A DNA stretch of 64,000 bases from Dictyostelium discoideum (taxonomy: Eukaryota). Positions 35,698 to 58,810 of the stretch are shown piece by piece. The stretch covers positions 2,176,001 through 2,240,000 of the forward strand of contig CM000151.3 of the NCBI GenBank assembly GCA_000004695.1, given 5' to 3'. The notes beneath the pieces were generated by a model. That model did no database searches and was not told the origin of the DNA. It saw nothing but the letters and a program-made list of their open reading frames with translations. The first letter of the stretch is position 1. Every line of letters starts with the position of its first letter. The translations under genes were made by a program, and so were the position numbers.

Positions 35698-36461
35698 ATC
35701 TTTATTTAATAGTAAATTTAAAAAATAGTTGCAAAAGCAACACCTTGATAGTAAAAAAATTAAATATTTAAATAAATTATTATTTTATAACAATAACTTT
35801 TTTTTTTTTTTTTTTTTTGACCATAATTTTTTTTTTTATATATTAATTTTAAGTTAATGGGGTACCCAATCCCAAATTGTTTCAATTTTCCTACCCTGGT
35901 AACATTCAAGAAGAGGCCTGTAAAAAAAAGGTTTTATTTGAATCTTTCCAAATAAAAAAAAATAATAATAGAATCAAATATCTAATACAACACAAGATTT
36001 ATTATAATTCAATGGTTTGAATTTCTTGATTGAAAATATTTTAGAATAATAAAAAAACAATAAATAAATATTTAAAAATTAAATTTAATTAGGTTTTTGT
36101 TTTTTTTTTTTTTTTTATTTATCTTTAAATTTTCTAAAATTAAATAGTTCTAGAATGAACTTGAATAAATCTATTAATTTTCATCACTAAAATTTACTAC
36201 TATTATTATTATATTAAAAGCTTTTTTTTTTTGGTTTGAAATAATTTACAAAGTTTTTTTTTTTTTTTTTTATTATTCTTTTTTTATAAAAATTATAAAA
36301 TATATATGATCTAAATTGTTAATTTGATTTATACTACTGGGAAACTTGCAGAACTGGCAATACCACAGCTATAAGTTAAAATTTTAAAAATAAATGATTT
36401 GTTAGTAACTCTATTCTGTATATTAATATATGTATATATATATATTTTTAACTTGTAGTAC

Positions 36462-37616
<1,155 letters not shown>

Positions 37617-44281: not shown

Positions 44282-44651
44282 ATGAATTTTAATAAAGCAA
44301 GCACAACATTAAAAGATACAAAGAAATTAATTATTGTTTTGGAACATGCAACATTAGATACAGTTAAAGTCAAAGAAAGCTTTCAATTATTAAATTGTGA
44401 TGATCATGCTGACATTTTAAAAAAACATGGTAAAGAAGCATCAGAAGCTAGACCAGATATTTTACATCAATGTTTATTAGCACTTTTTGATAGTCCACTC
44501 AATAAAGCTGGTCTTCTTCAAGTTTTCATAAAAACTACTAAAAATGTTTTAATTGAAGTACATCCACAAACTAGAATTCCAAGAACTTTTAATAGATTTG
44601 CTGGTTTAATGGGTAAATAATAAAATAATAAATTAAGAAATTAAGAAGAAG

Positions 44652-44682
<31 letters not shown>

Positions 44683-45393
44683 TACCATTTATTTTATTTT
44701 ATTTTAGTTCAATTATTAAAGAAATTAAGCATTAGAGCAACAAATGGACCAGATAAATTATTTAAAGTTATTAAGAATCCAATTACAGATCATTTAGCAC
44801 CAGGAACTAAAATATACGCAACTTCATTCTCTGCACCAAAATGTGTAGATTTATTTGAATTTGTTCCAGAAATTTTCGGATATGATCCATTACCAGTGAT
44901 TCCAGTTTCAACTACACCAACAGGTGTAGCATTAGGTTCATCAACCAATAACAACAACAATGTAAATAGTATTCAATCATTAAATTCATTAGGTGGAGCA
45001 CAAGTTAGAAGTGCTGGTGAAAGTTATTATGAGGGTATGGAAGATGAAGAAGCAGCAGAAGAAGAAGAAAAAGCAACAGAAACAAATAATAAAAATAAAA
45101 ATAAAAGAAAACAAGATGAAAAATCTGATAATGATAAAAAGAAACAAAAAACTTCAAATACTACAACTACAACTACTTCGACTGCAACAACAGTACAAAA
45201 GAAACCAGAAAAGAAATCTGATCAATTAAATGGTTTACAACAAGTTTGTATTGTAATTGGTGCCATGTCAACTGGTGCTATGAAAATCGAGTATAAACAC
45301 GAAGAAATCGCTTTCTCAAATTATCCTTTATCCGCTGCTGGTGCTTGTTTTAAAATTACTACAGTTTTTGAAAGACAATGGGGTATCTTGTAA
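44282..45393 (+). CDS. emg1: Ribosome biogenesis SPOUT methyltransferase EMG1/NEP1. Two exons: 44282..44612, 44708..45393; about 338 aa with an internal low-complexity insertion
   Basis: [77 protein letters not shown]|[30 protein letters not shown]..; the C-terminus [47 protein letters not shown] matches human EMG1. The junction is GTAAAT/AG in phase 1 and recreates the conserved LMVQLL. An in-frame insertion of about 100 aa (N/K/E/T-rich) lies at roughly 44930..45240. Confidence 0.8.
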
Positions 45394-45499
45394 AAGAAAC
45401 AAAAATAAATTAAAAAAAATTAAAAAATAAATAAAAAAAAATAAATAAAAAAAAAATAAATAAAAAAAAAAAAAAAGAACAAAAAATTTATTTGATTCA

Positions 45500-45530
<31 letters not shown>

Positions 45531-45947
45531 AAAATTTTCTAATGTTTGTTTTAGGGATTGGAAAAACAATAGTAAAGAAAATAATAATAGAAATTTAAAG
45601 ATAAAAACTTTTTCTTTTATTTTTTTGACTAATATCCTTGATTGGTTTTCTTAATTTATTATTTTTTTATTTTTTTATTTTTTGTGTAAAAAGTGAAAGT
45701 AAAATTATTTGAATAACATTTTCAGAACCACACAAATTTTTTAATTTTGAACATTGAACAAATTAATTTTAGATTTTATTAAAAAATTTTCTTTGATTTG
45801 AAAATATCTAGCCAACCGATTTGATTACTTTTATTTTTTTTCTTTTATTTTCTCAAATTTTTTTTTTTTCTTTTTTCGAAACAAATCAACTTTATTTCAA
45901 TATTTTTTTATTTTTTTTAAAAAATTAATATTAATAAATAAATTAAA

Positions 45948-46524
45948 ATGACACTTAATTATGGCAGCTCAGCACTTCACAAAGTATTAGGATCAGGTGC
46001 TGGTAAAAAAGAGAAAAAAAGTTCTGGTAGAGCTGCAGATTCAACAGAAACAGTTATAACTATTGTTTATGGTGATGGTAAAGTTTTTGAAGCCCAGGAT
46101 TCAAATGGTTTGGCTGATCCATTTATTAGAATTGGTACAGTTAAATCTGAAGGTAAATATATATATTTATATATATTAAAATTATTAAATTATTATCAAA
46201 AAAATATTAATTTTTTTTTTTTTAAAAAAAAAAAAAGGTGTTTTTAGTAAAAAATGGAAATCAGAATCACCAGTTTGTGAAAAAACACTTACACCAAATT
46301 GGAATTACTGTGAAGATGAATTTATTATTAAAAAAACAACAAAAGAATTAGTAGTTGAACTTTGGGATAAAGATACACTTAAAGATGATTTCGTAGGTAG
46401 AGCAATCGTTGATATTTCAGGTATTGTAACTAGTTTAATGTCATTCAATATTGAATTTAGAGAAAAACCAACTGATGAAAAGCCAAAAGGTACTGTTACA
46501 ATTTATATTAAAAAATTATATTAA
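45948..46524 (+). CDS. Small C2-domain protein. Two exons: 45948..46152, 46238..46524; about 163 aa
   Basis: The sequence is ..ETVITIVYGDGKVFEAQDSNGLADPFIRIGTVKSEG|VFSKKWKSESPVCEKTLTPNWNYCEDEFIIKK..LVVELWDKDTLKDDFVGRAIVDISGI.., showing a C2 beta-sandwich hallmark (DPF/Y.., LWDKD). The donor is GTAAAT. The acceptor AG at 46236-46237 was chosen because the alternative AG at 46246-46247 runs into a stop codon. Confidence 0.6.
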
Positions 46525-46633
46525 AATATAATCGGAAAAAAAAAAAAAAAAAATTAAATAAATAATAAAAAAAAAAAAATATATATATATGTATAATTTA
46601 GTTTTAAAATTTTATTATTATTTTATTTGTAAT

Positions 46634-49574
46634 TTAATCTTGTATTGATTCAGGTGGTATTGGTTCATTTAATCTTTTTTGAATTTGTTTTCTTTTTTTA
46701 TATTTTTTAATATAAATTATAACTAAAACAAGTATAGCAATTAAAAAGAAAAGACAAGGTATTAAAATTGCAGGTATTAACCATTTTTCAACATGAGAAT
46801 TATTGTTTTGATCGGAAGTACCACCACCACCACTATTATTATTATCACTTCTAAATTGATATTTATCGGGAATTGAATATTTAAATACATCAGCATCACC
46901 AGACTGACCATTAACATTAATTTGAATTTGATGATCAGATCTTTCTATTGAAGATTTATTTAATGATTCAGATAATGGTGGTAAATAACAAGTTAATGAG
47001 TTTGAATCAGTGATATTAACATAGATACATTGTTGAAGATTTGCAATTGTAATATTTATTGGTTTTGCCAATTGTGATCCGAAAATTGTAATTAAACCAC
47101 CAGTTGTTGGTGAAACTGATGTTGAATTTATAATTGTTGGTGACATATAAGAGAAGGTTAAACCCTTTGGGTTACCTTGAACCAAAATATCATTAATTAA
47201 AATTGAAACTGAATAATCACCACCTGATCCAGGTGGCATTTTACAAGTTATTGATGTAAAATGTTTTAAATCTAATTGTTGAATATCTTTACAAATTTGT
47301 GACCCAATTTTAATATTTAAATGATTGCCATTGTTGTTGTTGTTGATAATTTCATTTTCATTTACAAAATTATAATTTAATAAATTTAAATATTTACCAA
47401 TTATTGTAACAACACCACCATTAACTGATAATTTTGAAGGTATTGAAGTTATGAATGGTATAATTGGTAATTGAAGTTGGTTTGATTTTTGACCACCAAC
47501 TTCAATGAAAATCATTGAAGTTTTTATAGAATCCGGTATTTGAAATTGAATTAATTCACTTGAATTTGTTAATACTGGTAGTGGTGTAACAATGATTTTA
47601 CCATTGATTTCATTGTTAATATAAATGAAAACTTTTGAATTTAATTCACCCAAATTATTACCATTAACAATTGCATTATCAAAAGATTGATAAATTTTTG
47701 AAATGGTTGGGGCTTGATAAGTGAAATTTGTGAAAATGGCAGGTTTGGAATCACCAATTTCAAGTTTAAACCATAACTTTTTACCAATACCTGGTGAGAC
47801 TTTACAATAAATAATTTCACCAGGATATGATGAATCCTCAATTGGATCATGACAATTTAATTGATTATTATTATTAAAATTTTCAATTGAAAACTTTGAT
47901 TTCAATGGTTTACCATTTTCACTTGATAAATATAACCCATTACCTTTAATTGTAATTAAACCACCTTTAGTAGTTGGTGAACTAATTTCTTTAATTGATA
48001 CATTTATTCTAATCGGTATTGAAGAGTTATCGTTACTACCATCAATTGATACTGTTAATATACCAGGTCTTGGTATTGGTGAAATGTAAAGTATTGTACT
48101 ATTAACTATAGTTATAACCGATTGATTTAATTTAATACCATCTAAATAAACTGACATATCATTATTCATAAAATATTTACCAATAACTTTTAATTTACCT
48201 TGTTGTTCAATTGATGTTGTTGATAGTAATGTTGGTGGACCACAATCGAATATTGTTGAAGAAGGAGGTTGTCCAATTGGTATTGAAATACTAGTTGGTG
48301 GTGTTGTTGCACCATTTGAATTTTTATCCCAAAATTTAAATGCTCTACCACCACTTGTATATTGATAATATAATGGTGAATTCATTTGAAATTCAATATG
48401 GTTGATTGAGCTTGACAATTTTTGACCATATTGTGAAATTGGTGTTAGTTGTGAATAGGTTGTACTATCTAAAAAGTAACCATTGAATTTATAAGTACGA
48501 TTAGATGTTGGGCCCTCAATTGAATTTATAGTGATTGGTGGATAACCTTCCTTCAATTGACCTTGACCACAATAATTATCTAAACATAATGTATACTTAA
48601 AATCTCTTGTAGGACAAAGTCCAACAAGTCTATTAAAATCAGTTATAATCAAATTTGTGCTATTGACATAGTCAATTGAGATTTTATATGGAAATGGGTA
48701 ACAACTTGGCATGAATGTTAATAGTTTTCTATTTGTGCCAAAATTTATGCCAATAAACTCAATTTTAGTAGCACCTTTCTCAATATCCATTGATAACACT
48801 CTTGCAGAATTTATTATTGGTTTTGGGTAAGTTGCTTTGTATGGTGTTTGCTGTGAATTTTGATGATCACCACCAAAACTGATTAAAACATACCCAAAGC
48901 CAGGATCCATTGTCCAAGTTAATAAACCTGGTTGATTATAGATTAAACTATTTTCATATTTTAAATTTCTAATTTCTTTAGGTTTACCTGTGATATCTGT
49001 AATTGTCATTGGGGTGCTATTGGCGTTTGAGCCATCATAATATCGAATCTTCAATGAAGAAGTTCCATTAGTATATAAATGTGAATCATCGATTTCAACA
49101 GGAAATGAAATTGGTATCGATATCTTTTCATCAAGAACTCTGTTGGTTATTTTATACAATAGTGTTCCTTTACATTCTTGTTTTTGAAAATCGGTATATC
49201 CTGTGAAATCAAATGTTGAATTACAACTATTACTACCATCCAAATTCTTTATAATACGATTTGATCCAAATCCTTGAATCGCTCCATTATATGTACATTC
49301 TAAATTAACCAAACATAATAAATCAATATTTATTAAATCATTTGAATTTGGTAATATTGTTATAAATACTATTGATTTTAAATAATTAATTTTACTTTCA
49401 ATTTCACCTAAAATAGAATAAAAATTAATAAATAAATAAATAAAAAAATATTAATACTATATAAATATATATTTTTTTTAAAAAAATTAAGTAATTTAAA
49501 AATTATTTACAATTTATACTATATATAAATAATGAAATCAAAAATAATAATTTTAATACTATAAATGATTTCAT
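46634..49574 (-). CDS. Receptor E: signal peptide, multiple IPT/TIG-like Ig-fold repeats, TM and short tail. Two exons: 49511..49574, 46634..49368; about 932 aa
   Basis: Exon 1 encodes MKSFIVLKLLFLISLFIYSIN followed by t and a GTAAAT donor. The acceptor AG at 49369-49370 (caatag) is the only one compatible with the 892-aa ORF frame; the ttttag at 49407-49412 is out of frame. The body has repeated modules ending in G-rich strands (..LSVNGGVVTIIGKYLN.., TKGGLITIKGNGL.., TTGGLITIFGSQL..). The TM is WLIPAILIPCLFFLIAILVLVIIYIKKYKKRKQ with a short cytoplasmic tail. Confidence 0.7.
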
Positions 49575-53609: not shown

Positions 53610-54747
53610 ATGAAAAAATATTCATTACTAATTTTAATATTGTTTATTAATTGTTCATTTTCTAAACTTACAGAAATTCAATATAGAAATGAATTTACAG
53701 CATGGATGACATCAAATCAAAGAACATATGCATCAAGTGAGTTTACTAATCGTTATAATACATTTAAATCAAATTTAGATTTTATAAATCAATGGAATTC
53801 CAAAGGTAGTAAAACAGTTTTAGCATTAAATGAATTTGCTGATATTTCAAATGAAGAATATAGAAAAAATTATTTAAGAAATGATAATAATATCAATAAA
53901 TTATCATCTTTATTAATTAATGATAAAGAAGATAAAGAAATTAAAAGTAGTAGTAGTAGTGGTAGTGGTAGTTCTGGAATTGATTGGAGAAAAAAAGGTG
54001 CAGTTCCTTCAGTAAAAAGTCAAATCGGTGGATGTGGTTCTTGGCCAATTACCGCAGTTGGTGCAACTGAAAGTGCTCATTTCTTAGCTAATCCAAAGGA
54101 CCCATTCATATCATTATCAATGCAAAATTTAATTGATTGTTCAAATTTAAATAAACAATGTTATCAAGGTACTGTTAATGAGTAAGTAATAATTATTATT
54201 ATTTTTATTTTTATTATTAAAATTAAATAAATGATTCTAATTATTATTTTTTTTTTAAAAAAACTATAATAATAATTATAGAGCATTTCAATATATTATT
54301 GAAAATGGTGGTATAGATAGTGAAGAATCTTATAAATTTAGTGGTGGTGAACCTGGAAAATGTAAATATAACTCTTCAAATTCTGTAGCTAAAATAACGT
54401 CATATGAAAAAGTTAAATCTGGTTCAGAATCATCATTAGAATCTGCTGTATCTCTTAAACCAGTTGCTGCTTATATTGATGCATCATTATCATCATTCCA
54501 ATTTTATTCTTCTGGTATTTATTATGAACCATCTTGTAATTCAACAGATTTAAATCATAGTATTTTAATAGTTGGTTTTTCTGATTTCTCAACAACACCA
54601 ACTGATTCTTTAAAACATTCCTCAAATTATTGGATCGTTCAAAATTCTTTTGGAAAAAATTGGGGTGAAAATGGTTATATCTTTATGAGTAAAGATAGAG
54701 ATGATAATTGTGGAATTTCAAAAATGGCAAGTTACGTTATTGTTTAA
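53610..54747 (+). CDS. Papain-family homologue with the catalytic Cys replaced by Ser (candidate pseudoprotease or Ser-variant hydrolase). Two exons: 53610..54181, 54282..54747
   Basis: The signal peptide and prodomain (EIQYRNEFTAWMTSNQRTYAS..FADISNEEYRKNY) are about 55% identical to the CP gene at 37072..37613. The mature start IDWRKKGAVPSVKSQIGGCGSWPITAVG aligns without gaps to ..[22 protein letters not shown], so the Cys25 position is Ser (TCT at 54039..54041) and the Cys22 position is Gly. His (DLNHSILIVGF) and Asn (NSFGKNWGENGY) are retained. The junction is GTAAGT/AG in phase 2 (..QGTVN E AFQYIIENGGIDSEESY). Confidence 0.75.
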
Positions 54748-55056: not shown

Positions 55057-56793
55057 TTGCACATCTTTATTAAATATATGAATAATTCTAAATTTCCAAA
55101 TTATATTTATAAAACTATAATTAACTTTTTAATTGAATATAATTATAAACATAAACAATCATTAAAAGCATATAAAAACTTATTAAATTATAATAATGAA
55201 GTTATTCAACTTTCTCTAGTATCAAAAAAGTGGTTTGAGTTAGTGTCAATCTCTTTAAAAGAAATTTTAAAATTTAAAAATATTAAATTATTATCAAATT
55301 TAATAGATTATAAAAATATTAAAAATAAAAATAAAATAATTAATTATTCATTAAGTATTAATAATAATGATAATCACAACAATAATAATAATAATCAACC
55401 ATCTTTATTAAGAATTCATCAATATAAAAAAAGTAAACATATTAATAATTATTATAATATGCAACCAATTTATAAAAAAGTATTATTAGTTTCAAAAAAT
55501 CATCAAGATTCTATGGATATTATAAAATCGATTAAAAATTATCCACCAAATTATTTATTTAATATAAGAGTATCATCAAATGGACCTGCTTTTTTAGTGA
55601 ATCAATTTGGAAAATTAAAAGAATTTTTATTATTAAATATTGGTAATGATAATGATGAAGGATTGGAAATAATTGAAAATAATTTAAAACTAAATGTAAC
55701 AATAGATTCGATAGTAAAAGAAAAAACTACAACAACATCAACAATGGAAACTACAGAAAAATTATTATTAAATAGAATTAATAAAATTAAATTCTGTGGT
55801 AATTATTGTGGTAGTAATAGTTTTGATCCTACAGAAGTTTTTAAGAAATTAAGTGAATTAAACCCAAAGAGATTAGAATTTAATAGTTTTATGGAAAAAC
55901 CAATTACAAGACTCCCATTTGAAGTTTTTAATTTAAAATCATTAAAATCATTAAAAATAAATGATTCTTCTATTTTAGAACCAAGTTGTCTTTCAAAAAT
56001 TGATAATCAAACTACAAAATTAAAAAAGCTAACTACTTATTTACCATTTAATCTATATGTAGAAGCTTTTAATTCTAGAGATGATAACTATATTAAAGAG
56101 TATGGTTGGGGTCAACTCTTTGAAATATTATCAAATAATAGAACAATTAAAAAACTACATATTAAATATATTTTCTTATCATCAAGACGTTATTTAGATT
56201 ATATGAATGCTAAATGTATTGACCCATTTAAACAAAATACAAATAAATTAAACCAATATTTTAGTTTAATTTTTGATAATAATAATAATAATAATGGTAG
56301 TGGTAGTAGTGGTTGTATAATTGAAACTTTAATAATTGATAAATGGTATTTCATAAATTCAATACTTTATAATTCATTATCATTAAATAAATCAATTATA
56401 AATTTAAAATTATTTGACCAATTTGTTGAACCATTCTTTGAATTTGTTTTACCAATAAATAAAACAATTAGAAATTTATATTTAAAGAATCCAATACTTG
56501 GTAAAAAGAATTTATTTGATATTTTTAAAAAATATTTTAATTTAATTTTAAATTTATATTCAATTTCAATTGTATTTATAATTACAAAAGTAACATCAAC
56601 ATTTATTGAAAAACAAATTGATTTAATTAAAAATTATTATTTATCATTATCACAATCAGAAACTTCAAATTTAAAAGAAATTAATTTTTTAATAGATTAT
56701 AAAGGATTTAAATTAGAAAATAATAAAAAAATTATAAATTTTACTAAAGTTTATAATATTATAATTTCAAAAATACCAATAAATTTTGTATAA
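55057..56793 (+). CDS. Asn/Lys-rich hypothetical protein (578 aa) with a possible N-terminal F-box-like motif and LRR-like repeats
   Basis: A single long ORF runs from the ATG at 55057. The N-terminus ..EVIQLSLVSKKWFELVSISLKEIL.. resembles an F-box. Downstream there are L-rich repeats (LKSLKSLKINDSSILEPSCLSKIDNQTTKLKKLT..). This is a weak assignment. Confidence 0.45.
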   Translation: MHIFIKYMNNSKFPNYIYKTIINFLIEYNYKHKQSLKAYKNLLNYNNEVIQLSLVSKKWFELVSISLKEILKFKNIKLLSNLIDYKNIKNKNKIINYSLSINNNDNHNNNNNNQPSLLRIHQYKKSKHINNYYNMQPIYKKVLLVSKNHQDSMDIIKSIKNYPPNYLFNIRVSSNGPAFLVNQFGKLKEFLLLNIGNDNDEGLEIIENNLKLNVTIDSIVKEKTTTTSTMETTEKLLLNRINKIKFCGNYCGSNSFDPTEVFKKLSELNPKRLEFNSFMEKPITRLPFEVFNLKSLKSLKINDSSILEPSCLSKIDNQTTKLKKLTTYLPFNLYVEAFNSRDDNYIKEYGWGQLFEILSNNRTIKKLHIKYIFLSSRRYLDYMNAKCIDPFKQNTNKLNQYFSLIFDNNNNNNGSGSSGCIIETLIIDKWYFINSILYNSLSLNKSIINLKLFDQFVEPFFEFVLPINKTIRNLYLKNPILGKKNLFDIFKKYFNLILNLYSISIVFIITKVTSTFIEKQIDLIKNYYLSLSQSETSNLKEINFLIDYKGFKLENNKKIINFTKVYNIIISKIPINFV

Positions 56794-56917: not shown

Positions 56918-58810
56918 TTAATTTTCCCAATCACTATCGTCTTCATCATCTTCTTCATTTTCACCTAAATTTCCTCTTCGTTTAGCCATTGCTGCTGCTA
57001 ATGTATCTACTAATGAACGATTACCAGACTCACCTAATTGTAATTCTTTTAAATCTGGTAATGGTTCACTTGGATCTACTTTTTTTAAATGACTTGCACC
57101 TCCAAATCCTCTAATACTATCCATGAGATTTGAACGACCACTATCCAATGGTGGCATTGATGTGGGTGGTGCAGAGGTTGGTTTTGATATTGCTGGTGGT
57201 GGAGGTGGTACCATCGATGAATTATTTAATGAAATTGGTGCACTTGGTGGTGGTGGTGGAGGTGGTACCATCGATGAATTATTTAATGAAATTGGTGTTG
57301 GTTTTTCAATTGGTGATTGAATTGATGGTGCTGGTGGTAATGGTGATTTTGGATCAACTGGGGCAACTGGAATATGAGCTAATTGATCAGGCATTGGTGG
57401 TGGTGGTGGAGGCATTACATCACCCCCAACTTTATCAATAATAACTTGTGGTTGTTGAGTAGTTCTTTGAATAATTGGTGGTTGAACGACTGGTATTCTT
57501 TGTTGAGTTGGTGGTGTTGGTGGTAATCCTGGTCTTTTGGAAGTTGGTAACGGTGGTGGTGGAGATTGTAATTTTGTTTGTGAAGGTTGTTGTGATAAAT
57601 CTCTTCTTTGTCTTGGTGGAGGGGTTGGTTGTTTTCTTTGTGGAGTTACTTGTTGTGGTTGTTGTGGTTGTAGTGGTTTTTGTTGATAAAATTGATTATA
57701 ACCTTCTAAATTTTGTGGCTGTTGAGATGATTGATATACATATTGCTGTGGTGTTTCACCTTGGAAAGTGTATTCTTGAGGTTTTTGATTTTGTTGTTGG
57801 TAAACGTATTGTTGTACACCATTCGAAGTTGATTGCATTACTTGCTCCATTTGTTGTGGTGATGGACGTTTTTGTGTTGGTTGTAATGGTTCATCCAATT
57901 TATATTGTGATTTAAATTCTTGTTGGATCAATGGTTCGTTACTATTATATATTTGTTGCTGTTGTGGTTGTTGTGGTTGTGTTGGCTGTAGTGGCTCATC
58001 ATCTGGTTTCATGAAATTTTGATGAATTGGAATTGGTTTACCACCGATTGTAGTTGGTAATTTACCTCTAGTAGTATATGCTTGTTGTTGTTGTTGTTGT
58101 TGTGGTGGTTGTTGTTGAGCCATTTGTTTATATGGTTGTTGTGGTAATGGTTTATTAATTTGTTGGTGTTTTGGTAAAGGTCTAATTTCAGAACCAGGTT
58201 TTGGTGGAGGTACTCTTTGAGCACCCATTTTTTGAGTAGTTGATGTGGGTGGGGGTGGAGGTGGTGCTCTGGATCTAATTGGTTGTTGTTGTTGCTGTTG
58301 TTGTTGTTGCTGAGGAATATTGGTTTGCTGATATGGTGCTGTAGTTGTACCACCTGCCATACCTGCTTTTTGATTATTAATATTCTCACCTATTATACTA
58401 TAAATGAATTGAACAGTTTCTGGATTCTTTAAATCTTTTTTCTTTATACCTGCTGCTTGAAATAATTGTCTCCACTCTGGTGGAATATTTTTAATTTCAA
58501 AACCATTTTCTTTATCCCAACCTATATGAGATTCATGTTTAAAATCAGTTGGACCTGATATCTCCATACCTTTTTCTTCATTTCTATGTCTAGTTTTATC
58601 TAAAACTTTTTGAAAAAATCTACCATGTTTTTTTTTTGTTTCTAAAAAAAAAATAAAAAAAAAATAAATATTAATAATTAATAATAATAATAATAATAAA
58701 ATATAGAAATAGAAATATAGAAAAGAAATAAAAATAAAAAATTATTTTAATTTTAATAAAAATAAAAATAAAAAAAACTTACTTGGATTATGAGAGTCAA
58801 TTTCTGTCAT
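56918..58810 (-). CDS. WASP-family protein lacking a WH1/EVH1 domain (basic region, CRIB, long poly-Pro/Gln, WH2, central and acidic regions). Two exons: 58783..58810, 56918..58641; about 583 aa
   Basis: Exon 1 encodes MTEIDSHNP followed by a and a GTAAGT donor. Exon 2 encodes KTKKKHGRFFQKV.. (basic) then the CRIB EISGPTDFKHESHIGWDKENGFEI. The middle has PPPPP stretches and Q-rich runs. The C-terminus has the WH2 RSNLMDSIRGFGGASHLKKV, the central RSLVDTLAAAMAKRRG and the acidic EEDDEDDSDWEN with Trp. The junction is phase 1. Confidence 0.75.

Follow-up and report, generated by a model that had tools for sequence, protein, structure and literature searches.

A cathepsin-L-like gene of Dictyostelium discoideum with serine at the catalytic cysteine position: a conserved, probable pseudoprotease

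Gene model and identity of the locus

Our window is a stretch of 64,000 nucleotides of Dictyostelium discoideum DNA (contig CM000151.3, positions 2,176,001 to 2,240,000), with a G+C content of 22%. The gene DDB_G0272742 lies on its forward strand and an active paralogue, cprE, on its reverse strand (48% protein identity; the cprE motif is QGQCGGCW). The spliced coding sequence of DDB_G0272742 (1038 nt) specifies a protein with 100% identity to D. discoideum AX4 XP_644986.1 (UniProt Q7KWP5), whose database name is "hypothetical protein" only. The reading frame of exon 1 forms a 191-codon ORF that stops just within the intron. At the level of the fold, the product belongs to the C1A family: a Peptidase_C1 domain (PF00112; residues 123-343, E 6.6e-58 by Pfam) is preceded by an I29 propeptide and a predicted signal peptide. 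A preliminary description of this DNA had reported the signal peptide, the prodomain and both splice sites as preserved. This holds, as I29 was recovered by Pfam, the GT and AG sites were confirmed, and a signal peptide is predicted. The active cysteine proteinase gene used for comparison in that description is cprE, identified by an exact match and with TGT at the nucleophile position. The features of the locus are as follows.

53610..54747, + strand: DDB_G0272742, whole coding sequence; 345-aa prepro-cathepsin-L-like protein, spliced translation equal to XP_644986.1
53610..54181, + strand: exon 1, with the ATG at 53610
54182..54281, + strand: intron, GT..AG, 100 nt, phase 2; same position and phase as cprE intron 1
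54282..54747, + strand: exon 2, including the stop codon (54745..54747)
53610..53663, + strand: predicted signal peptide MKKYSLLILILFINCSFS, residues 1-18; a hydrophobic N-terminus that aligns with the signal peptides of active paralogues
53694..53861, + strand: Inhibitor_I29 prodomain at residues 29-84, in which the ERFNIN-type and GNFD-type motifs are retained (Pfam PF08246, E 2.2e-15; alignment; AF2 pLDDT 92-98)
53877..53975, + strand: Asn/Ser/Gly-rich low-complexity linker that joins the prodomain to the mature domain, residues about 90-122 (alignment; pLDDT about 60)
36329..37613, - strand: cprE, cysteine proteinase 5 (CP5), DDB_G0272815, active paralogue; exact spliced match to the homologue P0012

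The length of the Asn/Ser/Gly linker varies across strains and species, as does that of a short Ser/Thr insert (54580..54625) that is the counterpart of the Ser-rich insert of CP4/5/7. Protein length is 341, 345 or 348 aa in D. discoideum isolates and 333-354 aa across species. With regard to introns, the D. firmibasis orthologue (L001:11043-11132) keeps a second intron before the 3' CGI codons (at about 54700 in the window), matching cprE intron 2 (36369..36465), and this intron has been lost from the orthologues of D. discoideum, D. cf. discoideum, D. citrinum and D. dimigraforme. In intron 1 of cprE (36919..37071, - strand; 153 nt), a long, perfect run of the (TAT)n type is followed by poly-T; since the (TAT)n run translates as a run of Tyr, tblastn bridged this intron as a single HSP.

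A remodelled active site

The preliminary description had noted Ser at the position of papain Cys25, with the catalytic His and Asn preserved and the upstream disulfide Cys moved. These observations were borne out, as codon 144 is TCT in the spliced translation, His283 (CAT) and Asn312 (AAT) are present in D. discoideum, and the disulfide Cys sits two residues, not three, before the nucleophile position; both motifs quoted there match the sequence exactly. The positions that matter are listed below with papain numbering for the equivalents.

54021..54044, + strand: remodelled motif Q138-I-G-G-C142-G-S144-W145, identical in 7 orthologous sequences except for one G-to-D (D. dimigraforme)
54021..54023, + strand: Gln138, equivalent of Gln19, retained
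54024..54026, + strand: extra Ile139 codon, according to the indel model
54033..54035, + strand: disulfide Cys142, aligned with Cys22
54039..54041, + strand: Ser144 at the Cys25 position, codon TCT (TGT in cprE), directly before the conserved Trp145
54165..54167, + strand: Gln186 at the Gly65 position (GCxGG to QCYQG), fixed in the clade; Gly in 19/19 active dictyostelid paralogues
54472..54474, + strand: Tyr255 at position 133, in the S2 pocket wall (Ala/Ser in active paralogues), invariant in the clade, with a putative effect on the pocket
54553..54561, + strand: Asn282-His283-Ser284, aligned with Asp158-His159-Ala160; DHG in active paralogues
54556..54558, + strand: His283, codon CAT; Leu (CTT) in the D. 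firmibasis orthologue
54643..54651, + strand: Asn312-Ser313-Phe314, equivalent of Asn175-Ser176-Trp177; Asn kept, Phe in D. discoideum and D. cf. discoideum
54643..54645, + strand: Asn312, equivalent of Asn175, codon AAT, retained

At the nucleotide level, the motif reads CAA GGT CAA TGT GGT GGT TGT TGG in active paralogues and CAA ATY GGT GGA TGT GGT TCT TGG in the orthologues that carry Ser (hereafter the Ser clade). An Ile codon gained after Gln19, a Gly codon lost between Cys22 and position 25, and three substitutions would account for the difference; MAFFT and HMMER both selected this indel model, which places Cys142 on the invariant disulfide Cys22. The gapless alignment to cprE given earlier is possible but needs approximately 9 substitutions, as against 3 with the indel model. 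Spacing in the Ser clade is C-x-S, compared with C-x-x-C in the family, with no change in how far the nucleophile position lies from Gln19. The combination of C-G-S-W with the Ile insertion was found in the Ser clade only, and in none of the 329 other homologues among the 337 compared.

Other hallmarks of active peptidases were also replaced. In place of Cys25 at the N-terminus of the central helix, all 7 of 7 orthologous sequences carry Ser before Trp, and instead of C22-G-x-C25-W spacing and a G65-G66 motif they have C-G-S-W and Q-C-Y-Q-G. Six changes at positions that are 85-100% conserved in 19 active dictyostelid paralogues are fixed in the clade (A/S27P, G36S, G65Q, S131A, D158N, and K174Q), which also has Tyr for Ala/Ser at position 133 and Ser for Gly at position 160. 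Gln19 and Asn175 are kept in 5/5 species and His159 in 4/5, the exception being D. firmibasis (CAT to CTT, in a single assembly). Trp177, which is Trp in 273/286 homologues with the motif matched, has been replaced by Phe in D. discoideum and D. cf. discoideum.

The six Cys of the mature domain (C142, C184, C177, C218, C276, and C334) fall at or next to the columns of disulfides 22-63, 56-95, and 153-200; the first of them stands one residue out of register with the nucleophile position, and bonding is predicted from these columns. Because six Cys make up the three family disulfides, the Ser clade would have no spare thiol. As read from the alignments, the change in DDB_G0272742 is a multi-site remodelling of the active site that is larger than one nucleotide. 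Two earlier statements are therefore retained in part: TCT and TGT do differ by one base, but the event spans several sites and includes an indel pair, and "otherwise intact" applies to the gene and not to the active-site surroundings, where the indel pair is joined by several clade-fixed changes.

Predicted structure

The AF2 model of DDB_G0272742, obtained with a 120-sequence alignment (a 21-sequence alignment gave an unusable pLDDT of 42), reached a pLDDT of 88 and a pTM of 0.88, and it superposed on procathepsin L/K/H with TM scores of 0.88-0.90. The central helix of the model begins at Trp145, which would put Ser144 at the helix N-terminus, the site of Cys25. Fold, prodomain and disordered linker are predicted to be as in an ordinary zymogen.

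Conservation across species and selection

Orthologues were identified in four other species, with identities to the AX4 protein of 89% (D. cf. discoideum), 81% (D. citrinum), 71% (D. dimigraforme), and 68% (D. firmibasis). These four sequences and two further D. discoideum isolates all carry Q-I-G-[G/D]-C-G-S-W-P. Gene order is conserved around the locus (nucleoside hydrolase, histone-fold gene, DDB_G0272742, PBD/WH2 gene, isocitrate-lyase-family gene, and TANGO2), and ORFs and splice sites are intact in 5/5 species, with exon structures solved for each locus. This Ser is encoded by TCT in all five species and in the three D. discoideum strains compared, over dS values of up to 0.64. Exon 1 coding sequence was identical in five independent read assemblies (SRR28564542/3 and SRR26869266-8, as Logan contigs), all of which include the intron and are probably genomic. 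TGT was not found at this codon in the five species, three strains, and five read assemblies. The preliminary description had allowed for a sequencing error or strain polymorphism at Ser144, and this is refuted by the orthologues and independent read assemblies; a decaying pseudogene is rejected on account of the intact ORFs and splice sites in five species, dN/dS below 1, and transcription of the gene.

To evaluate selection, we used pairwise Nei-Gojobori estimates (NG86), a simple method for a genome of 78% A+T, which gave dN/dS of 0.23-0.38 over the whole coding sequence of DDB_G0272742 (dS 0.11-0.64), with a synonymous excess relative to neutrality (Fisher p 1e-3 to 2e-13). Values were 0.15-0.31 for the mature domain and 0.24-0.59 for the prodomain. 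For comparison, cprE orthologues from the same species gave 0.21-0.27 and the active paralogue adjoining EMG1 gave 0.155-0.18. DDB_G0272742 is under purifying selection, which is stronger on the mature domain than on the prodomain, and the cleft and active-site segments are among the best-conserved parts within the Ser clade. The gene thus combines loss of an essential catalytic residue with purifying selection across five species, as is characteristic of pseudoenzymes.

Evolutionary origin

In a neighbor-joining tree, the Ser clade (100% bootstrap) was nested, with 92% bootstrap, in the Dictyostelium-specific cprD/E/F/G-like expansion. Among the dictyostelid genes, no internal branch exceeded the stem branch of this clade (0.222), and root-to-tip distances were 0.87-0.97 for the Ser clade and 0.62-0.83 for the other, Cys-bearing dictyostelid sequences. 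A profile search of 5.8 billion proteins scored the orthologues at 635-741 bits and everything else at 432 bits or below, and it recovered no further members of the Ser clade. Sequences of D. purpureum and other group-4 species were absent from all of our protein-search results, and the clade was seen in five species of the D. discoideum complex. The pattern suggests a history of duplication, fast remodelling, and purifying selection. DDB_G0272742 would represent a young, datable birth of a pseudoenzyme, with the active parent family adjoining, in a genetically tractable amoeba, and it could reveal what role a dead cathepsin has in a phagocyte.

Neighbouring genes

An extra active cathepsin-L-like gene (P0007, P0008, and P0006; motif QGQCGGCW) lies between the EMG1 and C2-domain genes of D. 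citrinum, D. dimigraforme, and D. firmibasis. The same interval holds neither a cathepsin-L-like gene nor a tblastn remnant of one in the D. discoideum window and D. cf. discoideum, which points to a clean gene loss in the common ancestor of these two (coordinates: window 44282..46634; L002:781-1864, L003:977-2139, L008:1001-2192; L004:1659-2311).

Directly downstream of DDB_G0272742 is a 578-aa ORF (55057..56793, + strand) without a Pfam match. D. cf. discoideum has a + strand gene of 649 aa at this position. The next gene after the orthologue in D. citrinum and D. dimigraforme is the minus-strand PBD/WH2 gene, and a different minus-strand gene of 731 aa stands between the orthologue and the PBD/WH2 gene in D. 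firmibasis. It is possible that the 578-aa ORF is a lineage-specific insertion. The PBD/WH2 gene itself (56918..58567, - strand) is syntenic in five species, and with a P21-Rho-binding (PBD/CRIB) domain at the N-terminus and a weak WH2 motif at the C-terminus its predicted product looks like a member of the WASP family.

Expression and annotation

DDB_G0272742 is transcribed: Table S2 of PMC9686302 lists it, together with cprE, among the genes whose expression differs in starved cln5- cells. The 51-gene proteolysis and 20-gene extracellular lists that include it match the starvation analysis as the article presents it (PMC9686302). Table S2 assigns to it the GO terms cysteine-type endopeptidase activity, proteolysis, lysosome, and extracellular space, and it is counted among 14 "cysteine-type endopeptidases" in the enrichment analysis (PMC9686302). 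Since the protein has no cysteine nucleophile, the label "cysteine-type endopeptidase activity" is in doubt and probably wrong. Our results would therefore serve as a database correction for a gene that is treated as a protease in enrichment analysis. Searches for DDB_G0272742, Q7KWP5, and XP_644986 found no mention in the main texts of articles and a single supplementary table; the gene was not found in the supplement of a hypoxia preprint.

Proposed function and alternatives

It is most likely, as judged from sequence comparisons, that DDB_G0272742 is a pseudoprotease rather than a Ser-nucleophile enzyme, because His is lost in D. firmibasis, Trp177 is Phe in D. discoideum, and Gly65, Asp158, and the Cys22 spacing are changed throughout the clade. 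The same changes lend support to the preliminary description, in which a pseudoprotease had been offered as one possibility and a Ser-nucleophile variant as the other. More specifically, we consider it probable (roughly 0.68) that the product is a papain-family pseudoprotease, secreted or lysosomal, that acts by binding through its remodelled cleft. In this proposal the gene would have been born by duplication inside the Dictyostelium-specific cprD/E/F/G-like expansion, in a burst of change the thiol nucleophile would then have been lost and the S1/S2 region reshaped, and purifying selection would have maintained the result. The protein would enter the secretory/lysosomal route, its prodomain presumably still being needed for folding and sorting; it would not auto-activate, and any processing would be carried out in trans by active paralogues. 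The cleft, conserved in the clade yet unlike that of active enzymes, may bind a partner, for which a ligand of peptide or glycan nature, a cystatin-type inhibitor (with DDB_G0272742 as a decoy), or an active cathepsin (with DDB_G0272742 as a regulator) are candidates. Cys-to-Ser changes in cysteine-peptidase scaffolds invariably abolish activity (PMC4671257), and C25S and C25A cathepsins serve as non-cleaving peptide binders (PDB 7q8g and 7q8d).

The conserved active site of the clade fits binding and catalysis on a new substrate equally well. The protein could be an active hydrolase or transferase in which a Ser144-His283-Asn312 triad acts on a new, perhaps non-peptide, substrate, as proposed for sponge silicateins. 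We regard this as unlikely. It would agree with the retention of Ser, Asn, and Gln19 (and of His in 4/5 species), with a TCT codon that does not vary across dS of up to 0.64, with the strong conservation of cleft segments within the clade, and with silicatein as a precedent for a papain fold bearing a catalytic Ser (PMC4671257). It is at odds with Leu in place of His in the single D. firmibasis assembly and with the altered Gly65, Asp158, and C-x-x-nucleophile spacing, which are kept in the other Ser-bearing homologues compared. Moreover, no Cys-to-Ser papain scaffold is known to have peptidase activity (PMC4671257), and in the neighbor-joining tree the clade falls within the cathepsin-L-like genes of Dictyostelium and is unrelated to silicateins. 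Still less probable is the bolder form of this idea, in which the Q-I-G-G-C-G-S-W clade would be a new Ser-His-Asn catalytic variant of the papain fold, a hydrolase or transferase whose non-peptide substrate would be located in the lysosome or the extracellular matrix of Dictyostelium. The shortened Cys-x-Ser loop and the Gln65/Tyr133 cleft would then be adaptations to the substrate, and the His-to-Leu change of D. firmibasis would be an assembly error or a lineage-specific loss.

A permanently latent zymogen is similarly improbable. Here the I29 prodomain, or a complex of pro and mature parts, would form a reservoir or competitive inhibitor of CP4/5/7-type proteases, in the manner of free propeptide-like inhibitors. 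The I29 domain and its motifs are indeed intact, a dead mature domain would be incapable of auto-activation, and cprE is listed along with DDB_G0272742 as differentially expressed in starved cln5- cells (PMC9686302). Constraint, however, is tighter on the mature domain than on the prodomain (dN/dS 0.15-0.31 vs. 0.24-0.59), the opposite of what would be expected if only the prodomain mattered, and the linker is long and predicted to be disordered and open to processing in trans.

It is very improbable that Cys142, a clade-invariant Cys two residues before the canonical position, acts as a displaced thiol nucleophile and leaves the protein a cysteine protease. HMMER, MAFFT, and nucleotide parsimony align this residue with disulfide Cys22, its recruitment would leave Cys184 unpaired among exactly six Cys for three disulfides, and His is lost in one species; Cys142 was rejected as the nucleophile on these grounds. 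Finally, a sequencing error, strain polymorphism, or decaying pseudogene, suggested by the single base between TCT and TGT, has a negligible probability given TCT in 5 species, 3 strains, and 5 read assemblies, with intact ORFs, dN/dS <1, and transcription.

Comparison with known systems

DDB_G0272742 and CP4/CP5/CP6/CP7 (cprD/E/F/G) are 48-53% identical and lie in the same genomic neighbourhood. They have the prepro architecture in common, as well as the position and phase of the intron and three disulfides, which are predicted for DDB_G0272742. DDB_G0272742 differs from them in the absence of a Cys nucleophile, in the C-x-S spacing, G65Q, D158N, and Tyr133, in a short Ser-rich insert, and in the long stem branch of its clade.

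Sponge silicateins are cathepsin-L-like proteins with a Ser-His-Asn triad, secreted with a prodomain, that catalyse reactions of silicon alkoxides and form filaments. The residues of such a triad are present in D. discoideum, whereas His is absent in D. firmibasis. The Ser clade is unrelated to silicateins beyond the family, being nested in Dictyostelium-specific genes (92% and 100% bootstrap), and the engineered "cathsilicatein" 2VHS matched DDB_G0272742 (E 7.5e-48) no better than ordinary cathepsins did.

Plasmodium SERA5 is a Ser-bearing papain-like pseudoenzyme with His and Asn kept and with evidence for a non-enzymatic role (PMC4671257). DDB_G0272742 likewise has Ser at the Cys25 position and, in D. 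discoideum, keeps His and Asn. SERA proteins differ from DDB_G0272742 in being large and vacuolar, with multiple domains and no classical I29 prodomain, and in their independent origin.

Papain-family homologues without Cys25 are well known and include silicateins, SERA proteins, and many "non-peptidase homologues". Loss of Cys25 is thus recurrent in the family, and since such homologues are common the case of DDB_G0272742 will not surprise specialists. Among the family members that we compared, pooled from two homologue searches, 39/271 were without Cys25 (24 Ser, 9 Gly, and 6 Ala). The Ser clade made up 8/24 of the Ser cases, and 31 further proteins were without Cys25, some of them also without His. 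Ten papain-family proteins from other eukaryotic or metagenomic sources had lost both Cys25 and His159 (P0134, P0135, P0143, P0155, P0162, P0209, P0222, P0228, P0267, and P0271), with Ser, Gly, or Ala at position 25 and Leu, Ala, Ser, Glu, Gln, or Phe at position 159, which suggests that double-dead C1 homologues recur independently. Unlike the Ser clade, all 31 other Cys25-less homologues keep C-x-x-[SGA] spacing. Within the range of these comparisons, the only unusual trait of the Ser clade appears to be its C-G-S-W spacing with the compensating Ile insertion.
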